DNA from: Candidatus Woesearchaeota archaeon
GTDB lineage: Archaea; Nanobdellota; Nanobdellia; Woesearchaeales; BM511
Length of the DNA stretch: 64,000 bases
Direction of reading: 5' to 3'
Assembly (NCBI GenBank): GCA_018221135.1
Contig: JAAOYB010000050.1
Coordinates: 527-64,526 of the forward strand
Of the stretch, positions 4,715-14,293 are shown piece by piece (the first letter of the stretch is position 1; each line of letters begins with the position of its first letter). The translations under genes were made by a program, and so were the position numbers. Below the pieces are notes generated by a model. The model was not told where the DNA came from. It made no database searches and was given only the letters and a program-made list of their open reading frames with translations.

Positions 4715-6616
4715 TTGGTTTTTATACAAAAAGCGCTTTACATAGATGCTAATAATAAGAGTTCTAAAACAAAAAAAATAGATGCTCCAGAAATCATGGG
4801 CCCAGTCGATTTTGGGGTTAGAGAATACGAAAAAGACAAATCAGTTTTTTGCTTTGGAACCGGGATTCTTTCAGGAAGCATAATCCCAGGTACTAGGCGT
4901 TTGGTGTTCACAGGTCTTAGCCCATTATGGAAAAATTTCTATATCAGTACTATGGGCGGCGCTGCTTACGTCTTTCATCGTTTGGGCATAAACTATGTGA
5001 GTATAAAAGGAAAAACTCCCAATCTTAGCGTCTTAGAAATAAACAGGAAAAAAGGAAAATTAAGCGTTTCTTTCCACGACATAAGCCCTGATAAGATATG
5101 GGAGGGTTACAAAAAAGAAATCGGTGTTTACGCGCTCCAACAATACATATATGATAATTACGCAAAGAATTTCAAAGATGATTGCAGGATACTAATAACT
5201 GGTCCTGCGTCTCAAAGAACTAATTACGGCGCCATCGCTAGCGCTCCTATCGGACGTGACGGCGTGATAAGCCACGTTGATTGCTGGGCTGGCAGAGGCG
5301 GGTTTGGAAGCAAATTATTACAAGACCACAATGTTGTAGGCATCATTTACGGAGGAGACTTCGAAGAAGACAAATCCTCACCGCTAAAAGACGTTAAACT
5401 AATAGATTCAGTCTTCGAAGAAGGCATGGGTAAGAGGATGATGGCAGCTGATATGGACGCAACCACTAAGTATCGCTACGACCCTAGTTTTAAGAGCGGA
5501 GGAACCCTCGGCGTTAATTTTAGCAGGCTTAAGAGTTGGATGTTTAGTTTTAATTACGGCTCGGTTAAGTTCTCAGAAGGGCAACGCTTAGAATTATGGG
5601 AAGAATTCATACAAAACCATTACTTAAAACAATTCAACGAAGAAACAATACAGACAAAACAACAAAAGCATTGCGGGGAGCCTTGCCCCGCGGTTTGCAA
5701 GAAGATGAATGATAAATACAAAAAAGATTACGAGCCATACGAAGCGCTCGGACCTAACATGGGCGTTTTTGACCAGCGAGCCGCTGAGAAGCTTAATCGC
5801 TTTGCTGACGCGATGGGTTTTGACGCTATACAAATAGGAAGCGTTATTAGCTTCGTAGCCGAAGCGATAAACCAAGCATTAATACCTAAAGAAGACTTAG
5901 GTCTTAGTATCACTCCTAATTTCTCAAAAGAAAACTTTGACGTATTAACAGATAGTATGAACAACGCCGACTTCGGAGTGGAACTCATCAAAAAAATAGT
6001 TTATGACCATGAATGTGTTAGTCTTAGAAAAGGCTTGCGAGTCGCTGCAAAAGAATTAGACCAAAAATACCCCGGGGTTCTCAACCTAGCGGTTTACAAC
6101 GCTTTCGGAGAGGATGGCTGCATAGTTCCTAACCAGTACTGGGTTCCAGGAATGTTCAGCCCCATGCCTATAATGGGTAAGTACTTTGAGTATTACGGAG
6201 CTAATTATTTACCGCCAAGAGAGCTTGGCAAAAAAAACGTTGAGCGTATGATCCTCGAATTATATAGTGATAACGGAGGGATTTGCAGGTTTCACCGAGA
6301 ATGGGTTGAGAAATTATTAGAGCCATTAGTAAAAAAAGTATTAAAAGTAGATGTTGCGTATCGAATCAAAGATTATCATAGCCATCATAAAAGATTAGCT
6401 CAACTCATCAACCTAGGTAACAAGCCCGTTTTTTGGGAGACTGAGCGCGTAGTTGACATAATAAAGGCTTACTTAGAAAAAGTCTACGAATGCGAAGAAG
6501 AACACAAAGAAGAAGTACGAGCTTGGGTTGAGAAGTTCGAAGCTGATAAGTGGGAAGCAGCCAAGTTGTACTGGGAAGAATTAAAAGATGGTATGAACGA
6601 AGCATTCAGCGACTAA
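4715..6616 (+). CDS. aldehyde:ferredoxin oxidoreductase (AOR) family protein, tungsten/molybdopterin type
   Basis: AOR N-domain-like 'GRGGFGSKLLQD'; central 'CGEPCPAVCKK ... EPYEALGPNMGVFD' resembles the AOR 4Fe-4S Cys motif followed by GPEYE...G.N.G..D; ~630 aa. Confidence 0.55.
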   Translation: MVFIQKALYIDANNKSSKTKKIDAPEIMGPVDFGVREYEKDKSVFCFGTGILSGSIIPGTRRLVFTGLSPLWKNFYISTMGGAAYVFHRLGINYVSIKGKTPNLSVLEINRKKGKLSVSFHDISPDKIWEGYKKEIGVYALQQYIYDNYAKNFKDDCRILITGPASQRTNYGAIASAPIGRDGVISHVDCWAGRGGFGSKLLQDHNVVGIIYGGDFEEDKSSPLKDVKLIDSVFEEGMGKRMMAADMDATTKYRYDPSFKSGGTLGVNFSRLKSWMFSFNYGSVKFSEGQRLELWEEFIQNHYLKQFNEETIQTKQQKHCGEPCPAVCKKMNDKYKKDYEPYEALGPNMGVFDQRAAEKLNRFADAMGFDAIQIGSVISFVAEAINQALIPKEDLGLSITPNFSKENFDVLTDSMNNADFGVELIKKIVYDHECVSLRKGLRVAAKELDQKYPGVLNLAVYNAFGEDGCIVPNQYWVPGMFSPMPIMGKYFEYYGANYLPPRELGKKNVERMILELYSDNGGICRFHREWVEKLLEPLVKKVLKVDVAYRIKDYHSHHKRLAQLINLGNKPVFWETERVVDIIKAYLEKVYECEEEHKEEVRAWVEKFEADKWEAAKLYWEELKDGMNEAFSD

Positions 6617-8043: not shown

Positions 8044-8547
8044 ATGAAGAACAAAATAGCGGGTTACATAATAATTGGGATAGCACTCCTTTTTGGCTTG
8101 ATGATTTGGATGTTTAACAACGCCTTATCAACTATTGTGAGCGTTGCTTGCACTCACGGCCCAGATTGCCCTATGTGGAGAACTATCAATGTGCAAACCA
8201 GTATTGGTTTGGCAATAATGATTTTCATAATCTTAATAGGTGTTTACTTAATCTTTTTTGGCTTCGAAGAAAAAATCGTGACAAAGACGAGAACGGTTCA
8301 CAGACAAGTCAACCCGAATAAGCCAAGCAAAAAAAACTACGAGAAAATTATGAACAAATTAAGCGTTGACCAAAAAAAAGTTCTTGAAAAAATTATTTCT
8401 TCGCAAGGCAGCATGTTCCAATCAGAGATTGTTAGTTCAACAAAGCTTAGCAAAGTAAAAGTTACACGCATCCTTGACCGCTTAGAAGGACTGGGCTTAG
8501 TTGATAGGAAGCGGCGCGGCATGACTAACATAGTTATTCTTAAGTGA
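8044..8547 (+). CDS. membrane-anchored winged-helix (MarR/TrmB-like) transcription regulator with extracytoplasmic Cys/His/Met loop
   Basis: Two N-terminal TM helices flanking 'CTHGPDCPMW'; C-terminal wHTH 'LSVDQKKVLEKII...VTRILDRLEGLGLVDRKRRG'. Confidence 0.55.
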   Translation: MKNKIAGYIIIGIALLFGLMIWMFNNALSTIVSVACTHGPDCPMWRTINVQTSIGLAIMIFIILIGVYLIFFGFEEKIVTKTRTVHRQVNPNKPSKKNYEKIMNKLSVDQKKVLEKIISSQGSMFQSEIVSSTKLSKVKVTRILDRLEGLGLVDRKRRGMTNIVILK

Positions 8548-8646: not shown

Positions 8647-8856
8647 ATGGTTGTTACAAAACTAAAAACACAAAGCATGCATTGCGTTAGTTGTGAAGCA
8701 ATGATAAAAGACGCGCTCATGGATTTAAAAGGAGTGTACAGTGCTAAGGCCAATCATAAGAGGGGATTGATCAAAGTTAATTATGATGATTCAATAATAG
8801 AAAAAGAAAACCTCAAAAAAACTATAGAAAAAGCAGGTTATAAAATAAGAGAATAA
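8647..8856 (+). CDS. copZ: copper chaperone CopZ (heavy-metal-associated domain protein)
   Basis: 69 aa HMA fold with 'MHCVSCE' MxCxxC motif. Confidence 0.8.
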   Translation: MVVTKLKTQSMHCVSCEAMIKDALMDLKGVYSAKANHKRGLIKVNYDDSIIEKENLKKTIEKAGYKIRE

Positions 8857-8861
8857 AAAAA

Positions 8862-10346
8862 ATGGTTTACGAAAAAGAAACAATAAAAGTAAAAGGTATG
8901 ACTTGTACTAGTTGCGAAGACATAATAAAAAAAGAAGTAACAAAAAATAAAGGCGTAAAAAGTTTTGAGATTGATTACGCAACCCAGATAGGCCTAGTAA
9001 GTTTTGACCCAGAAAAAACAAGTATGAAAAAAATACTGGGAATAATTGAAGAAGCTGGTTACAACCCAAAGATTATAGGGGGGAAAGCTGAAAAAGATTT
9101 TAGTGGTTCCTATGCTATTAACAAAAAAGTAGTAGGGTACGCTATAGGAATAGTTGGGTTTTTATTAATCGCGTATTTCGTTTTTGGAATAGTTGATACA
9201 GTAAGGCTTCCTCAAATAAGCCAGAACATGGGTTACGGCTTGTTATTATTAGTGGGGTTACTCACTGGTTTTCATTGTGTTAGTATGTGTGGAGGATTCG
9301 TTCTCGGATACACCACAAAGAACTCTAAAGAAGGAAAAAGCAATTATAATGATCATTTCATGTACGGAGCAGGGAAAACAATATCGTACACAATAATAGG
9401 GGCGGGGTTTGGATTACTGGGTTCAATATTTGCTTTCACACCTCTCATGAGAGGAGTAGCAGGCATCTTAGCAGGATTATTTTTAATAATTTTTGGTCTT
9501 AACATGCTCGGATTCTTATCGCCTCTTAGACGTCTCAGACTAAGAACACCAAAGTTCGTATCACGTTTTGTTCGAACCGAATCCACTAAGCACAAAAGCC
9601 CACTTGTTATTGGTTTGCTTAACGGATTAATGATTGCGTGCGGACCACTCCAAGCAATTTATATCATGGCCGCAGGAACCGGGAGCGCGTTAGAAGGCGC
9701 AAAAGTGTTGTTCTTATTCGGTTTAGGAACATTGCCTGTCATGCTCGGTTTTGGTTTCTTAGCGAGTTTTCTGAGCAACAAAGCCACCAATAAAATACTA
9801 AAAGCGAGCGGTTTTGTAGTCATACTACTTGGTGTCATAATGGTTAATAGAGGCTTGGCTCTTAGCGGTACCGGATTTGATACTAACACCTTAGTTGCTA
9901 ACGTATTAGCTAGTAACGACGCATCTTTAACAGATGAAGGAAGCGCTTTAGAATTCGAAGATGGTTACCAAATTATTAGGATGACTGTTAATAGGTATGG
10001 TTGGGAACCAGACAAATTCGTACTAAAAAAAGGTGTTCCTACCAAGTGGATTATTGATGGCGTAGAGATTAATGGTTGTAACAACGCAATCCAAGTACCA
10101 AAATACAACTTAAAATTCGACGTTGAGTACGGCGAGCAAGTAATTGAGTTCACACCAACAAAAGAAGGAGTGATTAGTTGGAGTTGTTGGATGGGCATGA
10201 TACCTGGAGTCTTCGTTGTAAAAGAAGATATTGATTTAAGCGATGCTTCCGCGGTGCAAGGCGCTCTTGAAGAAGTAGTCGTCCCAAGCGGGGGAAGCTG
10301 TGGCGGCGGAGGCGGCGGTGGTTGTGGCTGCGGAGGAGGAAGATGA
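8862..10346 (+). CDS. HMA domain / DsbD_2 (TauE-like) membrane permease / cupredoxin-like domain fusion with C-terminal Gly-Cys-rich tail
   Basis: N-terminal 'GMTCTSCE' HMA; TM core with 'GFHCVSMCGGFVLGY' and 'ACGPLQAIYIMAAG'; C-terminal beta-rich 'WSCWMGMIPGVFVV' cupredoxin_1-like; tail 'SCGGGGGGGCGCGGG'. Confidence 0.65.
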   Translation: MVYEKETIKVKGMTCTSCEDIIKKEVTKNKGVKSFEIDYATQIGLVSFDPEKTSMKKILGIIEEAGYNPKIIGGKAEKDFSGSYAINKKVVGYAIGIVGFLLIAYFVFGIVDTVRLPQISQNMGYGLLLLVGLLTGFHCVSMCGGFVLGYTTKNSKEGKSNYNDHFMYGAGKTISYTIIGAGFGLLGSIFAFTPLMRGVAGILAGLFLIIFGLNMLGFLSPLRRLRLRTPKFVSRFVRTESTKHKSPLVIGLLNGLMIACGPLQAIYIMAAGTGSALEGAKVLFLFGLGTLPVMLGFGFLASFLSNKATNKILKASGFVVILLGVIMVNRGLALSGTGFDTNTLVANVLASNDASLTDEGSALEFEDGYQIIRMTVNRYGWEPDKFVLKKGVPTKWIIDGVEINGCNNAIQVPKYNLKFDVEYGEQVIEFTPTKEGVISWSCWMGMIPGVFVVKEDIDLSDASAVQGALEEVVVPSGGSCGGGGGGGCGCGGGR

Positions 10347-10807
10347 GAAAAGAACTCCTTTTTTTAATTATTATAAGCGCGTCCTTAATTATTACTGGGT
10401 GCACATCAAGTAACAGCGATGGTCTAAGCGGAAAAGTAGCCAGTGACTTAGGAAGCTCAGGAGATGGTTTTGTTAGTATTCCTCTAAGCGACTTATCAAG
10501 TACTTCTAAGTTCTACGAATACGAAGTCGGAGGAGTTAAAGTAAAGTACTTCGCTGTTCTTGGAAGCGACGGAGCGCCAAGAACTGCTTTTGATGCTTGC
10601 GATGTGTGCGGAGGAAGCAAAGGATACCAACAAATAGGAAGCGATATTCGATGCAGAAACTGCGGAAGAGTGTTCAGCATTGACGGCTTAGGAAGCAAAA
10701 ATAAAGGTTATGGTTGTTGGCCTAGTTACTTACCACACCAAGTAGTAGGTGATGACGTCTTATTAAACATAAACGATATAAAAGCAGGCAGTTACAGATT
10801 CGCCTAA
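10343..10807 (+). CDS. Cys-rich lipoprotein (zinc-ribbon-like 'CDVCGG...CRNCG' metal-binding domain)
   Basis: Start ATG overlaps upstream stop (ATGA); lipobox-like 'LIITGC'; four Cys in two CxxC pairs. Confidence 0.5.
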   Translation: MRKELLFLIIISASLIITGCTSSNSDGLSGKVASDLGSSGDGFVSIPLSDLSSTSKFYEYEVGGVKVKYFAVLGSDGAPRTAFDACDVCGGSKGYQQIGSDIRCRNCGRVFSIDGLGSKNKGYGCWPSYLPHQVVGDDVLLNINDIKAGSYRFA

Positions 10808-10946
10808 AAAAAAGATATTGATATGAGGTAAAAAAATAAAATGGTAAAAGATGATGAGTACCTAAAAATAAACAAAGTGGTTTTGTGGCAAGGCGCTACA
10901 GCAATATTAGGAATTCTTTTGATAATCTCAGTTTACACCGGGGGTT

Positions 10947-11624
10947 TTGGAGGAAAAAATGATTCTGCTTCTTGGTAGAGTAGTTGATGATCAAAAAAAC
11001 TTAGAAGCGGCTAAGCCGGCTCAGCCAAGCCAGCCTAGCCCTTCGCCCATCCCTACTCCAAGTCCCAGCGCGGCTCCTACTCCGAGTCCGAATCTTTATA
11101 TGAAGACATTAATCGATGACGACGCAGTAAAAGGGGATCCTAACGCGGTGGTGACTATTGTTGAGTGGAGCGATTTTGAATGCCCGTTCTGTGCTAGGTT
11201 TTATTCAGAGACGCTAGGACAAATACTTAGTGAGTACGTCGATACTGGCAAAGTTAAGTTTGTGTATAGGGATTACCCTCTTAGTTTCCATCCTCAAGCT
11301 CAAAAAGCCGCTGAGGCTGCGGAGTGCGCAGGTGAACAAGATAAGTATTTTGAGATGCATGACTTATTATTTGAGAAAGGCGTAAAAGGAGGCGTTGCTA
11401 GTTTTAAGCAGTTCGCGTCTGACATAGGTCTTGACACAGCGAAGTTTAATACTTGTCTGGATACTGGTGCTATGGCGTCTGAAGTAGCTAAGGATATGAG
11501 AGATGGTCAAAGCCTTGGTATTCGAGGAACACCCGGCTTCATCATTAATGGTCAACTAGTTAGCGGGGCTCAGCCTTTCAGCGCGTTTAAACAAGTAATC
11601 GATGCCAAACTAGCACAAGGATAA
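10947..11624 (+). CDS. DsbA-family thiol:disulfide oxidoreductase (thioredoxin fold, 'CPFC'); N-terminal TM anchor appears to lie in another frame (10841..10978)
   Basis: 'WSDFECPFCARFY' active site; Pro/Ser-rich linker; upstream 45-aa TM-containing ORF 10841..10978 in -1 frame joined across an A6 run. Confidence 0.7.
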   Translation: MEEKMILLLGRVVDDQKNLEAAKPAQPSQPSPSPIPTPSPSAAPTPSPNLYMKTLIDDDAVKGDPNAVVTIVEWSDFECPFCARFYSETLGQILSEYVDTGKVKFVYRDYPLSFHPQAQKAAEAAECAGEQDKYFEMHDLLFEKGVKGGVASFKQFASDIGLDTAKFNTCLDTGAMASEVAKDMRDGQSLGIRGTPGFIINGQLVSGAQPFSAFKQVIDAKLAQG

Positions 11625-11693: not shown

Positions 11694-11710
11694 AACATTT
11701 AAATATTTGA
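11694..11710 (+). promoter_or_regulatory. putative archaeal TATA box / palindromic operator 'ATTTAAATATTT' upstream of arsR (leaderless arrangement)
   Basis: TATA-like palindrome ~25 nt upstream of ATG 11728. Confidence 0.35.
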
Positions 11711-11727
11711 ACAACTATTCAACTATT

Positions 11728-12072
11728 ATGGATGTGGAAACAATAAAAAAAATTAAGCAGTTTTTTACTGCGCTATCAGATGAAACTCGTCTAAAAATTT
11801 TATTAGAGCTTATAAAAAGTCCAAAGAATGTAAATGAGATTCATAAAGCAATTCCAAACATAACTCTTTCAGCTGTTTCACATCAACTAAAACAAATGAA
11901 AGATATAGACATAATTTTTTATGAAAGAAAAGGAAGAGAAAAAATTTATTCTTTATCTGAAAAATTTTGTTGGTGTATACTTCGTGATGCTACAAATCAT
12001 TTTAAAAGAGGCGGAAAAAACTGTCCTCATTGCATAGAAATGCAAAAAGAGCATATTAAAAAAAGTAAATGA
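11728..12072 (+). CDS. ArsR/SmtB-family metal-responsive transcriptional regulator
   Basis: HTH 'LSDETRLKILLELIKSPKNVNEI...LSAVSHQLKQMKD'; C-terminal 'CPHC'; ATG at 11728 preferred over track TTG at 11707; gene is markedly more AT-rich than its neighbours. Confidence 0.75.
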   Translation: MDVETIKKIKQFFTALSDETRLKILLELIKSPKNVNEIHKAIPNITLSAVSHQLKQMKDIDIIFYERKGREKIYSLSEKFCWCILRDATNHFKRGGKNCPHCIEMQKEHIKKSK

Positions 12073-12088: not shown

Positions 12089-14293
12089 ATGAGTAAAAAA
12101 AGTGTTAATATTAAGGGTATGCACTGCGCTAGTTGCGTTTTTAGAGTAGAAAAAGCTATTAAGACAGTTGAAGGAGTCAGCAATGCTAATGTTAACTTAG
12201 CAACTCACAAAGCAAGTTTTGATCTAAGCGATGAAGCTAACCTTGAAAAAGTGGCGGTTGCTATCAAAAAATCTGGGTACGACGCGCAAATAGCGCAAGA
12301 AGCAAAAACAAATGATGATTCTGAAAAATTAGAAAGAGAAAAAGAAATCAACACACTTAAGACAAAAACTTATACTGCTTTGCTATTAAGTATTCCTCTT
12401 CTTTACTTCGCCATGGGAGCTCACGTCGGCCTACCAACTTTTTTTAGTGGTAAAACCATGGCGTTAGTACAATTCTTGATAACTACTCCTATAATACTTG
12501 TTGGTTACGAGTTTTACACTAAAGGTTTTATGAGCGTATATAAAGCCAAGACTGCTAATATGGACACCTTAGTAGCGGTTGGCACTGGAAGCGCGTATGT
12601 TTACAGCGTGGCCTCTAGTATCATCGGAAATTATGACAGCTTGTTTTTTGAAACCGCTGGAATCCTTATAGCATTCATACTCCTAGGCAGGTATTTAGAG
12701 GCTAACGCCAAGGGTAAGACTAGTGAAAGCATCAAGAAATTGATGGGTTTAAAAGCCAAGACAGCCATTGTTATCAGGGGCAAAAAAGAGTTAGAAATCC
12801 CAATTGATGAAGTAGTAGTAGGAGACATCGTACTTGTAAAACCAGGTCAAAAAATCCCTGTTGACGGCGTAGTCATAAACGGTCACTCATCAGTTGATGA
12901 ATCCATGATTAGTGGAGAGAGCATCCCTGTTGAGAAAACTAAAGGCGACAAAGTAGTTGGGGCAACGATTAACAAAACAGGGAGTTTTAAGTTTAAAGCA
13001 ACTGGGGTTGGAAGCGACACAGTCCTAGCTCAGATAATAAAATTAGTAGAAGAAGCACAAGGAAGCAAAGCCCCCATTCAAAAACTTGCTGATGTCATAG
13101 CAGCTTATTTTGTGCCAGTAGTTATTAGCATAGCAATTATTAGTAGCGGAATATATTTTTTTGTTAACGGATTCGCTTTTGCTCTCTCAATATTCGTGGC
13201 TGTCTTAATCATTGCGTGTCCGTGTGCTTTAGGTCTTGCTACGCCAACAGCGATAATCGTTGGCACAGGACTAGGAGCAGAGAACGGAGTGCTTTTTAAG
13301 AGCGCTGAGAGCCTTCAAGAAACAAGAAAGATAAGCGCTTTAGTCTTTGACAAAACAGGCACTATCACAAAAGGAGAACCAGAAGTAACAGACGTGATTA
13401 ATTTTAATAAGTTTAGTGATAGAGAAGTCTTAAGATTCGCAGGCATAGCTGAGAAGAACTCCGAGCACCCTTTAGCCGACGCGGTTCTAAAAGCTACTAA
13501 GAAGAAAAAAATAAGTGTTGTCAGCCCATCTAGTTTTAATAGCATCACAGGAAAAGGCGTGGTTGCCAACCTAAAAAAAGACAAGATAATCATAGGTAAA
13601 ATCTCCTTATTAAAAGAGCACTCAATAAGCACTAAAAAAGCAGAAGACTCTGTTTCAAAACTTGAAAGCCAAGGAAAAACTGTTATCTTAGTAGGCAAGA
13701 ACAAAGAATTAATTGGGGTGATAGGAGTAGCAGATACTTTAAAACCTCATAGCAAAGAAGCAATACAAACAATTAACTCTTTAGGAATCGATACTTTCAT
13801 GATAACAGGAGATAATAATAAGACCGCTAACGCAATCGCTAAACAAGTAGGCATCAAAAATGTAATCGCTGAGGTGATGCCAAACCAGAAAGCCTCCGAG
13901 ATTAGAGGTCTTCAAGAAAGCTATCTAAGCGTTGGGATGGTAGGTGACGGGATCAACGACGCCCCTGCATTATCCCAATCAGACGTGGGCTTCGCAGTTG
14001 GTAGCGGGACAGACGTAGCAATTGAATCTGGAGACGTCGTATTAGTAAGAGATGACCTTCGAAGCGTGCTTACCAGCATCGAATTATCAAAGTATACTTT
14101 TAGAAAAATAAAACAGAACTTGTTCTGGGCGTTTTTTTATAACGTGCTTGGAATCCCCTTAGCAGCAGGTGTTCTTTACCCTTTCACCGGGTTTTTATTA
14201 AATCCCATCATCGCTGGTGGAGCCATGGCGTTTAGCAGTGTGAGCGTTGTTAGTAACACATTACTTATGAAGAATTACAAAGCCAAGTTTTAA
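12089..14293 (+). CDS. copA: copper-translocating P1B-type ATPase CopA
   Basis: N-terminal HMA 'GMHCASCV'; 'CPC' in TM6 '[11 protein letters not shown]'; 'DKTGTIT'; 'GDGINDAP'; 734 aa. Confidence 0.92.

Follow-up and report, generated by a model that had tools for sequence, protein, structure and literature searches.

The small protein CupA of Streptococcus pneumoniae (PDB 4F2E and 2MRY) is fixed by a single N-terminal anchor at the cytoplasmic face of the membrane and hands copper to the cupredoxin-fold domain (PDB 4F2F) of CopA (PMC7558416). Cys74, Cys111, Met113 and Met115 serve as ligands in its two-copper site, and the protein has been described as confined to a few streptococci (PMC7558416, PMC5646241). 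Members of the DsbD family (TC 5.A.1) carry electrons, and the family has been reported to take part in resistance to mercury and copper (PMC4608589). In DsbD, CcdA and ScsB, the membrane core (PF13386, PF02683) has a cysteine in TM1 and in TM4 of a 3+3 repeat. In the signature of the DsbD/CcdA family, the cysteine motifs of TM1 and TM4 are flanked by proline. In the Mer relay, Hg(II) is imported to be reduced, by way of MerP, MerT and two parts of MerA, its N-terminal HMA domain and its C-terminal Cys pair. The cytoplasmic protein SlyD of Escherichia coli has a C-terminal metal-binding tail rich in Cys, Gly and His, which ends in a GCGC-type motif.

Here we analyzed a gene in a window of 64,000 nucleotides (the whole stretch of DNA under study) from a Candidatus Woesearchaeota archaeon. 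Its predicted product appears to carry copper-binding modules on either side of the membrane, together with a flexible Cys-tipped tail.

Domain architecture and membrane core

The features of the fusion gene and of its neighbours are listed in Table 1. In an alignment of 56 homologues (about 63% identity), C15, C18, H138, C139, M142, C143, G144, G145, C260, G261, P262, C406, C442, M444, M446 and C490 are invariant; judged by this alignment, the conserved motifs and the tail of the protein are more than chance.

Table 1. Positions in the window of the fusion gene, its parts and the surrounding genes
Feature	Coordinates	Strand	Details
Membrane-tethered winged-helix regulator, two TM	8044..8547	+	Pfam DUF7343 E 3.1e-10, MarR
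CopZ-like single-domain HMA metallochaperone, 69 aa	8647..8856	+	Pfam HMA E 3.3e-14
Fusion protein, 494 aa	8862..10346	+	ATG to TGA; HMA, TM0, six-TM DsbD_2 core, CupA-type cupredoxin, linker helix, Gly/Cys tail
N-terminal HMA domain	8880..9062	+	res 7-67; CxxC = C15, C18; PF00403; predicted cytoplasmic
Extra transmembrane helix TM0	9129..9197	+	res 90-112; hydropathy and model helix 88-113
DsbD_2 six-TM core	9243..9836	+	res 128-325; PF13386, PF02683; internal 3+3 repeat
TM1 motif HCVSMCGG	9273..9296	+	res 138-145; H138, C139, M142, C143, G144, G145 invariant
TM4 motif A-C260-G-P	9636..9647	+	C260-G-P invariant; at helix break
CupA-type cupredoxin domain	9945..10226	+	res 362-455; putative Cu(I) ligands C406, C442, M444, M446; predicted extracytoplasmic
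C406 codon	10077..10079	+	putative Cu(I) ligand
CWMGM motif	10185..10199	+	res 442-446; C442, M444, M446
Conserved linker with short helix	10227..10295	+	helix res 462-471 (model), consensus VQKEL, ends P-x-GG
Gly/Cys tail SCGGGGGGGCGCGGGR	10296..10343	+	res 479-494; disordered in model
FtrD-like four-Cys protein	10343..10807	+	PF10080 E 3.9e-21; lipobox-like LIITGC start, CxxC...CxxC
DsbA/Thioredoxin_4-like protein (CPFC)	10947..11624	+	PF13462 E 1.3e-38
ArsR/SmtB-type regulator	11707..12072	+	PF01022 E 7.3e-8; C-terminal CWC...CPHC
CopA, P1B-1 type Cu(I)/Ag(I) ATPase with N-terminal HMA	12089..14293	+	E1-E2_ATPase E 4e-59, Hydrolase, HMA

An earlier interpretation of the gene, made from the letters alone (the sequence-only reading), had placed an HMA domain with a CxxC motif at the N-terminus, and Pfam bears this out (PF00403, E 4.6e-15, 56.2 bits against a gathering score of 24.8). 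The metal loop, GMTCTSCE, is of the GMxCxxC type, and the structure model gives the beta-alpha-beta-beta-alpha-beta order of a ferredoxin-like fold with pLDDT of about 90. The NCBIfam models MerTP_fusion (55 bits, cut-off 180) and MerP (39 bits, cut-off 92.6) remained below their cut-offs and covered only this domain; together with the copper operon context described below, this led us to reject a mercury transporter.

The membrane core was correctly called DsbD_2-like, whereas the TauE part of the same proposal was not supported. DsbD_2 (PF13386) matched with E 1e-47 and 163.1 bits (gathering score 24.9) over profile positions 2-198 of 199, and DsbD_TM (PF02683) matched with E 4.9e-8, while TauE (PF01925) gave no match to the fusion protein at E <= 0.01 in Pfam. 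The core is an internal repeat of three helices (z 3.8), in which C143 of TM1 and C260 of TM4 are pseudo-symmetric partners; C260 lies at a helix break, which in the model separates helices 247-257 and 260-273. The TM1 motif HCVSMCGG, also pointed out in the sequence-only reading, was found in all 120 archaeal and all 118 bacterial relatives, and the TM4 triplet CGP is likewise invariant in these two sets. Thus, a conserved cysteine is present in each of TM1 and TM4 of a duplicated three-helix unit, as in DsbD and CcdA, but the proline-flanked signature of that family is absent: TM1 reads FHCVSMCGG, without proline, and TM4 reads ACGP. Unlike the DsbD, CcdA and ScsB proteins, the TM1 consensus HCxxMCGG adds an invariant His, Cys and Met, and the core is fused to HMA and cupredoxin domains rather than to thioredoxin or immunoglobulin-like redox domains. 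A metal site would account for the invariant His and Met beside the cysteines better than a redox pair alone. No solved relative of the core was found, the best being CcdA with a marginal E of 0.32, and the membrane part of the structure model has moderate confidence (pLDDT 65-85).

TM0 brings the number of transmembrane helices to seven, an odd number. The mean number of Lys and Arg residues per loop among the 56 homologues was 3.2, 4.8, 7.2 and 3.2 on one side of the membrane and 0.1, 0, 0 and 0.4 on the other; by the positive-inside rule, the HMA domain is predicted to be cytoplasmic and the cupredoxin domain and tail to be outside the cell.

CupA-type cupredoxin domain and Gly/Cys tail

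The C-terminal domain had been proposed to be cupredoxin-like, which stands for the fold although the Pfam assignment does not. Cupredoxin_1 (PF13473) matched at only 16.5-16.8 bits (E 0.007-0.009), below its gathering score of 27, and searches of the PDB by sequence and fold were therefore needed; some homologues do carry a precomputed Cupredoxin_1 match. Among solved structures, the domain matched S. pneumoniae CupA by phmmer with E 2.8e-11, and CupA was also the closest cupredoxin fold in Foldseek (TM 0.87). C74, C111, M113 and M115 of CupA align with C406, C442, M444 and M446, all four invariant in homologues. The motif CWMGM, which had been noted for its lack of a His ligand, is thus exactly the CxMxM Cu(I) motif of CupA, and the two proteins share the four ligands in the order Cys...Cys-x-Met-x-Met.

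Like CupA, the fusion protein is membrane-tethered and encoded next to copA. However, its cupredoxin domain follows seven transmembrane helices, is predicted to face outward and bears a Cys-tipped tail, and CopA of the window has an ordinary HMA domain where the CopA partner of CupA has a cupredoxin-fold domain. In contrast to the described confinement of CupA, the CupA-type domain has 2093 cluster representatives at E <= 1e-3. By eye, at least eight stand-alone relatives of the domain begin with lipoprotein-type signals, and therefore the subfamily probably often works outside the cell. Between the domain and the tail lies the conserved linker; a similar-looking linker, IKKEV..Y.P, was seen in bacterial relatives, compared by eye and not aligned.

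The tail has pLDDT below 50 in the structure model. In addition to the invariant C490, C480 and C488 are at least 90% conserved in the 56 aligned homologues. All of the 120 best DPANN homologues have at least two Cys within the last 30 residues, and 119 of them have CxC within the last 15; the ending GGCCG(G) occurs in 107 of 118 bacterial relatives. Since such tails are carried by these 120 DPANN homologues and 107 bacterial relatives, a terminal Cys pair on a Gly-rich arm is, as far as sequence comparison can tell, family-wide. The Gly/Cys tail called very unusual in the sequence-only reading is therefore real and conserved but not unusual within its family, and the form found here represents a DPANN elaboration of a terminal Cys pair common to thousands of relatives. 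The tail coding sequence has 71% G+C in a window of 37% G+C, which suggests that the tail is kept by selection on the protein. Methanotroph relatives are without the tail. When the window and all loci were scanned, one other protein so tailed was found, in Methylobacter marinus, and thus the tail is not a general feature of secreted DPANN proteins there. The SlyD tail and metallothionein-like segments are likewise disordered, low-complexity sequences with Gly-spaced Cys at the extreme C-terminus. The present tail differs from that of SlyD in its predicted place outside the cell and in the absence of His in DPANN, although some bacterial relatives end in GGCH.

Operon context and extent of the family

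The gene order copZ-like, fusion gene, optional ftrD-like and then copA was found in most DPANN loci. Among 84 related loci, CopA is adjacent in 63, the CopZ-like gene is directly upstream in 38 and the winged-helix regulator is upstream in 41. The motifs CPC, N(x)6YN(x)4P and M(x)2SS were read from the CopA sequence of the window, and we take them to be those of the P1B-1 Cu(I) subtype; the CopZ-like product matched the NCBIfam CopZ models below cut-off. An adjacent P1B-1 ATPase gene and CopZ-like gene, conserved across relatives, mark the locus as a cop operon. The regulator at 8044..8547 has an inter-TM loop, CTHGPDCPMW, with a conserved motif C-[ST]-H-G-x-x-C-P-M-W, and is a candidate metal sensor for the operon. 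Of three bacterial genomes sampled, one had the fusion gene with CopA and ArsR, one (Thermospira) with CsoR, CopZ and CopA, and one (Hydrogenispora) with an FtrD-like gene and CopA.

As had been noted from the sequence, the stop codon of the fusion gene overlaps the start of a four-Cys, lipoprotein-like protein. The TGA stop and the ATG of the FtrD-like frame share the tetranucleotide ATGA (10343..10346), and the tail codons GGAGGAGGA precede this ATG in a Shine-Dalgarno-like manner. The FtrD-like gene neighbours the fusion gene in 23 of the 84 loci, as in Hydrogenispora; the structure search found no solved relative of its product. The DsbA-like gene, a neighbour in 9 of the 84 loci, matched the NCBIfam Rcas_1661 family with 158 bits, below cut-off, and has a likely membrane anchor upstream in another frame, a probable homopolymer frameshift.

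Like the fusion protein, P1B-type Cu(I) ATPases with their CopZ have a cytoplasmic CxxC HMA domain partnering CopZ and a membrane site in which Cys and Met abound, and they are encoded in the same operon. However, the fusion protein is without ATPase domains, has an unrelated membrane fold and has a copper domain predicted to face outward.

In the searches made, the family comprised more than 4,300 clusters of archaeal sequences and more than 7,400 of bacterial ones. The same architecture and tail were found in hundreds of independent assemblies from different phyla (45-66% identity), and also in bacterial genome assemblies attributed to named species. In the genome scan, the closest bacterial relatives were the methanotrophs Methylocystis, Methylotuvimicrobium and Methylobacter. 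Bacteria with a homologue include Thermospira aquatica and the cultured Ruminiclostridium cellobioparum and Methylotuvimicrobium buryatense (strain 5G). Homologues are named 'sulfite exporter TauE/SafE family protein' or 'urease accessory protein UreH domain-containing protein' by NCBI and JGI, and for this family these names are misleading. A literature search (DsbD_2/PF13386, UreH-like, TauE and copper, DUF2318/FtrD, methanotroph cupredoxin) found no study of the family.

Possible functions of the fusion protein

On the domains, conserved ligands, predicted topology and operon context described above, we propose that the fusion protein is a transmembrane Cu(I)-handling protein of the cop operon which acts as a thiolate relay, most likely outward; we would put the probability of this reading at roughly 0.4. 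Cu(I) would be traded between the cytoplasmic HMA CxxC and the CopZ-like chaperone, whose gene lies directly upstream, and may then pass by ligand exchange along soft-ligand (Cys, Met and His) sites. In the middle of the membrane, the pseudo-symmetric C143 and C260, together with H138, C139 and M142, would form the DsbD_2 site, and the outer CupA-type cupredoxin would hold a two-copper Cys2/Met2 site. The Gly-rich arm, with its Cys pair or cluster, may swing to load or unload the cupredoxin site. Such a protein would provide an ATP-independent efflux or hand-off route beside CopA. The direction of copper movement is taken solely from operon logic, and high-affinity thiolates outside the cell would trap exported copper, so that capture, buffering or uptake would suit them at least equally well. 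The relay resembles the Mer relay in having successive Cys pairs inside the membrane and at either face of it, a cytoplasmic HMA domain, and a flexible C-terminal Cys-pair arm which may hand metal to a buried site. However, homology to Mer proteins is limited to the HMA domain, the outer binder is a cupredoxin rather than an HMA domain, and the Mer system imports Hg(II) whereas the context here is copper export.

A possible but doubtful alternative is that the core carries reducing equivalents outward instead of metal, as in CcdA, DsbD and ScsB, and keeps the thiols of the CupA-type domain and of the Cys tail reduced; in this state they could bind Cu(I), convert Cu(II) to Cu(I) or repair thiols damaged by copper, and the FtrD-like and DsbA-like neighbours may also be served. 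Characterized DsbD-family proteins carry electrons and not metals, the core matches both DsbD_2 and DsbD_TM, and the C143/C260 pair, single invariant cysteines of TM1 and TM4 that are aligned by the repeat as in the DsbD family, lies at the position of the CcdA/DsbD redox cysteines. The S1 cysteines of CupA reduce Cu(II) in vitro and what re-reduces them is not known (PMC5646241); a fused DsbD-like domain would supply the reductant. A link to copper tolerance is also seen in the copper-induced Scs system, in which, according to a 2026 bioRxiv preprint and PMC3322552, DsbD-like ScsB is paired with thioredoxin-like partners; one such partner, ScsC, is reported to bind Cu(I) with subpicomolar affinity (PMC8900818). 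Some loci of the fusion family likewise have a thioredoxin-like neighbour, and the four-Cys FtrD-like proteins are more frequent still, but most loci are without a thioredoxin-like gene. Furthermore, the HCxxMCGG motif departs from the proline-flanked signature, disulfide exchange needs neither the invariant His138 nor Met142, the similarity to CcdA is marginal, and the known DsbD path, in which thioredoxin is the donor (PMC3322552), includes no step for a cytoplasmic HMA domain.

An unlikely possibility is uptake, in which the tail and the cupredoxin would capture scarce Cu(I), or another thiophilic metal such as Ag(I) or Hg(II), which would travel by way of the Cys/His/Met site in the membrane to the HMA domain and on to CopZ, mirroring MerP-MerT-NmerA or Ctr1-Atox1. 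The high-affinity capture sites outside and the HMA acceptor inside are consistent with it, as are the methanotroph relatives, since methanotrophs are copper-needing hosts with a high copper demand for methane monooxygenase. The sub-threshold matches to the MerTP and MerP models also point this way but are explained by the HMA domain alone. The operons contain the Cu(I) exporter CopA and, in Thermospira, also CsoR, a repressor that senses Cu(I); it would harm the cell to induce an importer when copper is in excess. DPANN archaea, moreover, have few known copper enzymes, and members of the LysE superfamily are mainly exporters (PMC4608589).

It is very improbable that the database names are right and that the protein is a TauE/SafE sulfite or sulfonate exporter or a UreH-like nickel permease. 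The names themselves speak for it, but we rejected both on the lack of a PF01925 match, on the two flanking domains, which bind metal in the manner of copper proteins and keep conserved Cu(I) ligands, and on the neighbours copZ, copA and CsoR/ArsR, with urease or sulfonate genes in none of the inspected loci. Although the window comes from a metagenome-assembled contig and a neighbouring gene has a probable frameshift, a tail read through a missed stop or a chimeric three-domain frame is a negligible prospect and was rejected, as tail and architecture are conserved across homologues in so many independent and named-species assemblies.

Extending the relay reading, we suggest, quite tentatively, that HMA-DsbD_2-cupredoxin proteins are an unrecognized class of ATP-independent Cu(I) translocators with a chain of thiolate, thioether and imidazole ligands and a swinging Cys-tipped outer arm. 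Whatever its function, the family is large, misnamed and consistently located in cop operons, and our searches brought up no experiments on its members. Far from being a peculiarity of streptococci, CupA-type copper sites are widely distributed and lie mostly outside the cytoplasm, and the DsbD-like core fused to one here offers a specific candidate for the reductant that resets them. If either copper or electrons are moved across the membrane, the protein would fill a gap on the fate of Cu(I) after its expulsion by CopA in organisms without a periplasm. The methanotroph relatives are candidates for genetic tests. If the proposed translocator class is true, it would belong to the regular equipment for copper homeostasis of DPANN archaea and Clostridia, and could bear on how copper enters or leaves methanotroph cells.

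Domain composition and conserved ligands of the fusion protein

The fusion gene is intact from ATG to TGA and encodes 494 amino acids; databases already contain an identical protein, annotated as hypothetical, from a metagenome-assembled genome of Candidatus Woesearchaeota. All of the motifs quoted in the sequence-only reading were found where it had placed them, as was the overlap of the stop codon with the next start (ATGA at 10343). The proposed HMA domain was recovered by Pfam (residues 7-67, E 4.6e-15). Of the proposed TauE/DsbD_2-like core, the DsbD_2 part was matched (residues 128-325, E 1e-47, 163 bits), together with a weaker DsbD_TM match still above threshold, but the Pfam search gave no match to TauE. 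Similarly, Cupredoxin_1 remained sub-threshold for the beta-rich domain (16.8 bits against 27), whereas a cupredoxin likeness was supported by solved structures, namely CupA, the membrane-anchored Cu(I) chaperone of Streptococcus pneumoniae (E 2.8e-11), and, at E 1.9e-4, CopA of the same species through its cupredoxin-fold metal-binding domain. In the alignment with CupA, 'GCNN' and 'SCWMGM' of the fusion protein correspond to 'PCLD' and 'ACGMNM', which contain Cys74, Cys111, Met113, and Met115; these residues form the high-affinity bis-thiolate S1 site and the Met-rich S2 site of CupA (PMC7558416, PMC5646241).

In an alignment of 56 homologues (approximately 63% identity), the invariant residues included C15 and C18 in HMA, H138, C139, M142, C143, G144, and G145 in TM1, C260, G261, and P262 in TM4, and C406, C442, M444, and M446 in the cupredoxin domain. 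The AlphaFold model built with these homologues as input had a mean pLDDT of 74.5 (HMA about 90, cupredoxin 87-95, membrane core 65-85, and tail below 50). Alignment of TM1-3 with TM4-6 revealed a modest but real repeat (z 3.8) that places C143 ('MCGG') opposite C260 ('ACGP'), and in the model C260 lies at a break of TM4 between helices 247-257 and 260-273.

Seven transmembrane helices are predicted, TM0 and the six of the core. The mean number of Lys plus Arg per loop in the 56 homologues was 3.2, 4.8, 7.2, and 3.2 on the HMA side and 0.1, 0, 0, and 0.4 on the opposite side, where the stretch preceding the cupredoxin also lies. Because of this asymmetry, and since no signal peptide was found ahead of HMA, HMA is predicted to be inside and the cupredoxin and tail outside. 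Independent support for an outward cupredoxin comes from its stand-alone relatives (2093 cluster representatives at E <= 1e-3), several of which have lipoprotein-type signals at the N-terminus (eight or more on visual inspection).

Distribution of the family and the Gly/Cys tail

More than 4,368 proteins matched the fusion protein at E <= 1e-5, and CxMxM, HCxxMCG, ACGP, and a Cys-bearing tail were kept in all of the 120 best matches. A species-level scan (one genome each) found at least 558 relatives, in DPANN lineages (Woese-, Nano-, Micr-, Alti-, Aenigm-, Nanohalo-, Iain-, and Undinarchaeota) and also in Ca. Methanoperedens and bacterial methanotrophs (Methylocystis, Methylotuvimicrobium buryatense 5G, Methylobacter marinus, and others). 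With a bacterial relative as the query, more than 7,410 proteins with HMA, DsbD_2, and Cupredoxin_1 were obtained at E <= 1e-20, including those of Clostridia (Ruminiclostridium cellobioparum and Hydrogenispora ethanolica) and Thermospira aquatica. Many of them contain two copies of CxMxM, suggesting that the cupredoxin domain has been duplicated; HCxxMCG and CGP were kept in 118/118 bacterial relatives inspected.

The tail had been considered very unusual, and its conservation had been left to be checked. Among the 56 homologues, C490 is invariant, and conservation of C480 and C488 is 90% or higher; 116 of the 120 best matches have three or more Cys within the final 30 residues, and 43 have the five-Cys form GSCGGSCGSSTCGAAxGGSCGCGG. 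Nearly all archaeal members of the species scan have the tail, the exceptions being Ca. Methanoperedens and one uncultured archaeon. The tail is not unique, in that 107/118 bacterial relatives end with a terminal Cys pair in GG(G/S)CCG(G), and most others with GGCH. The preceding linker, V-x-DD-x-x-(V/I)D...(I/V)(K/Q)KE(L/V)...P...GG, is alike by eye in bacteria and DPANN. Since a terminal Cys pair on a Gly-rich arm is conserved in both archaeal and bacterial relatives, it is a module common to the whole family, of which DPANN proteins have an expanded version. This conservation also rules out a read-through artefact.

The final tail codons (10328..10346, +), GGA GGA GGA AGA, make up a GGAGGAGGA run, separated by 5 nt from the FtrD-like ATG that follows. 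This looks like an embedded Shine-Dalgarno site, which suggests translational coupling of the two genes.

The methanotroph relatives are 42-54% identical (Methylocystis, M. buryatense 5G, Methylobacter, Methylomicrobium, Methylovulum, and other Methylococcaceae; loci L054, L057, L061, L063, L065, L067-L069, L071, L072, L074, L077-L082, and L084 of the related loci). Many lack HMA and have HCxxMCGP, and the Cys tail is absent in all. Several adjoin a CopA-like ATPase, which is mostly encoded in the opposite orientation, and they may be connected with the provision of copper for methane oxidation. In Methylobacter marinus A45 (L080), a 224-aa protein (5154..5828, -) with an N-terminal TM helix, encoded by the divergently oriented neighbour of the tailless homologue, ends with '...SSGCGSDGGCGGGCGGGD', the only other Cys/Gly tail found in the window and loci L001-L084.

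Gene neighbourhood

Features of the cop locus and of the fusion protein, with neighbour counts over 84 related loci
Feature	Position	Strand	Neighbour in
Membrane-tethered HTH regulator	8044..8547	+	41/84
CopZ-like HMA	8647..8856		38/84
Fusion protein	8862..10346	+	
HMA CxxC, GMTCTSC	C15, C18		
TM1, HCVSMCGG	residues 138-145		
Cupredoxin-like domain, CWMGM	residues 442-446		
C-terminal tail, SCGGGGGGGCGCGGGR	residues 479-494		
FtrD-like four-Cys protein, lipobox-like start	10343..10807		23/84
DsbA-like protein	10947..11624		9/84
ArsR-type regulator	11707..12072	+	10/84
CopA	12089..14293		63/84
ORF directly 3' of copA, 509 aa	14297..15826	+	
Next ORF, 643 aa	15830..17761	+	

In archaeal loci, CopA is nearly always immediately 3' of the fusion gene in the same orientation; several gammaproteobacterial methanotrophs have it 5' of the gene instead, mostly in the opposite orientation. 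The same operon logic as in archaea is seen in three bacterial loci: Ruminiclostridium (with ArsR and CopA), Thermospira (with CsoR, CopZ, and CopA), and Hydrogenispora (in the order FtrD-like, fusion, CopA). CopA of the window has CPC, N(x)6YN(x)4P, and M(x)2SS, the motifs of the P1B-1 Cu(I)/Ag(I) subtype.

The HTH regulator, found upstream in 41 of the 84 related loci, is a two-TM winged-helix protein (DUF7343/MarR). Its inter-TM loop has a conserved C-[ST]-H-G-x-x-C-P-M-W (here CTHGPDCPMW), and C-x(4-7)-C-x-H is retained in distant versions. Judged by eye, the HTH would lie inside and the loop outside, as would be expected if the protein sensed copper or another thiophilic metal outside the cell. 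The ArsR/SmtB-type regulator immediately 5' of copA, with a C-terminal 'CWC...CPHC' cluster, is a candidate second metal sensor. The DsbA-like gene has apparently lost its N-terminal membrane anchor through a frame change: an ORF from 10842 (10842..10960, +) encodes 'MVKDDEYLKINKVVLWQGATAILGILLIISVYTGGFGGKN...' in a different frame and terminates shortly past an A run (GGAGGAAAAAAT), reflecting either a homopolymer assembly error or a genuine frameshift. For the 509-aa ORF, the Pfam search gave nothing convincing beyond a weak DUF3800 hit below threshold.

Possible function in copper handling

Each module of the fusion protein is already known, and Pfam and NCBI catalogue the architecture as 'sulfite exporter TauE/SafE family protein', 'UreH domain-containing protein', or 'heavy metal transporter', names that are probably wrong. 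Our literature search found no study of the family. As far as we could find, the CupA-type nature of the C-terminal domain, in which all four ligands are present, the prediction that this domain faces outward, the common Cys-tipped arm, and the near-constant position between copZ and copA in DPANN archaea are new.

The domains, ligands, and operon point indirectly to copper as the substrate, and with the predicted topology the soft-ligand sites are cytoplasmic, in-membrane, and external. Our preferred reading, held with less than even confidence, is that Cu(I) is relayed by ligand exchange, in which CopZ would hand Cu(I) to the cytoplasmic HMA, and the ion would then pass to the H/C/M/C + C site in the membrane, the CupA-type two-copper site, and finally the Cys-tipped arm. 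The main alternative, which we consider somewhat doubtful, is that the core carries electrons like DsbD, CcdA, and ScsB, so that external thiols are kept reduced or the CupA-type site is enabled to reduce Cu(II). In fact, the C143/C260 arrangement resembles the TM1/TM4 cysteine geometry of DsbD-family carriers; beyond this pair, however, TM1 has three extra invariant soft ligands (H138, C139, and M142). In favor of electron transfer, the reductant that resets CupA is explicitly described as unidentified (PMC5646241), and copper-induced Scs systems combine a DsbD-like protein with a Cu(I)-binding thioredoxin-fold protein (PMC3322552, PMC8900818). Uptake resembling that by MerP/MerT or Ctr1 would fit the predicted outward-facing capture sites and the relatives in methanotrophs, but it conflicts with the operon logic and is improbable. 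As for the Cu(I) relay, its direction is most likely outward, because the operons in which the gene is found are those of copper efflux, and one of them includes CsoR, a repressor that senses Cu(I).
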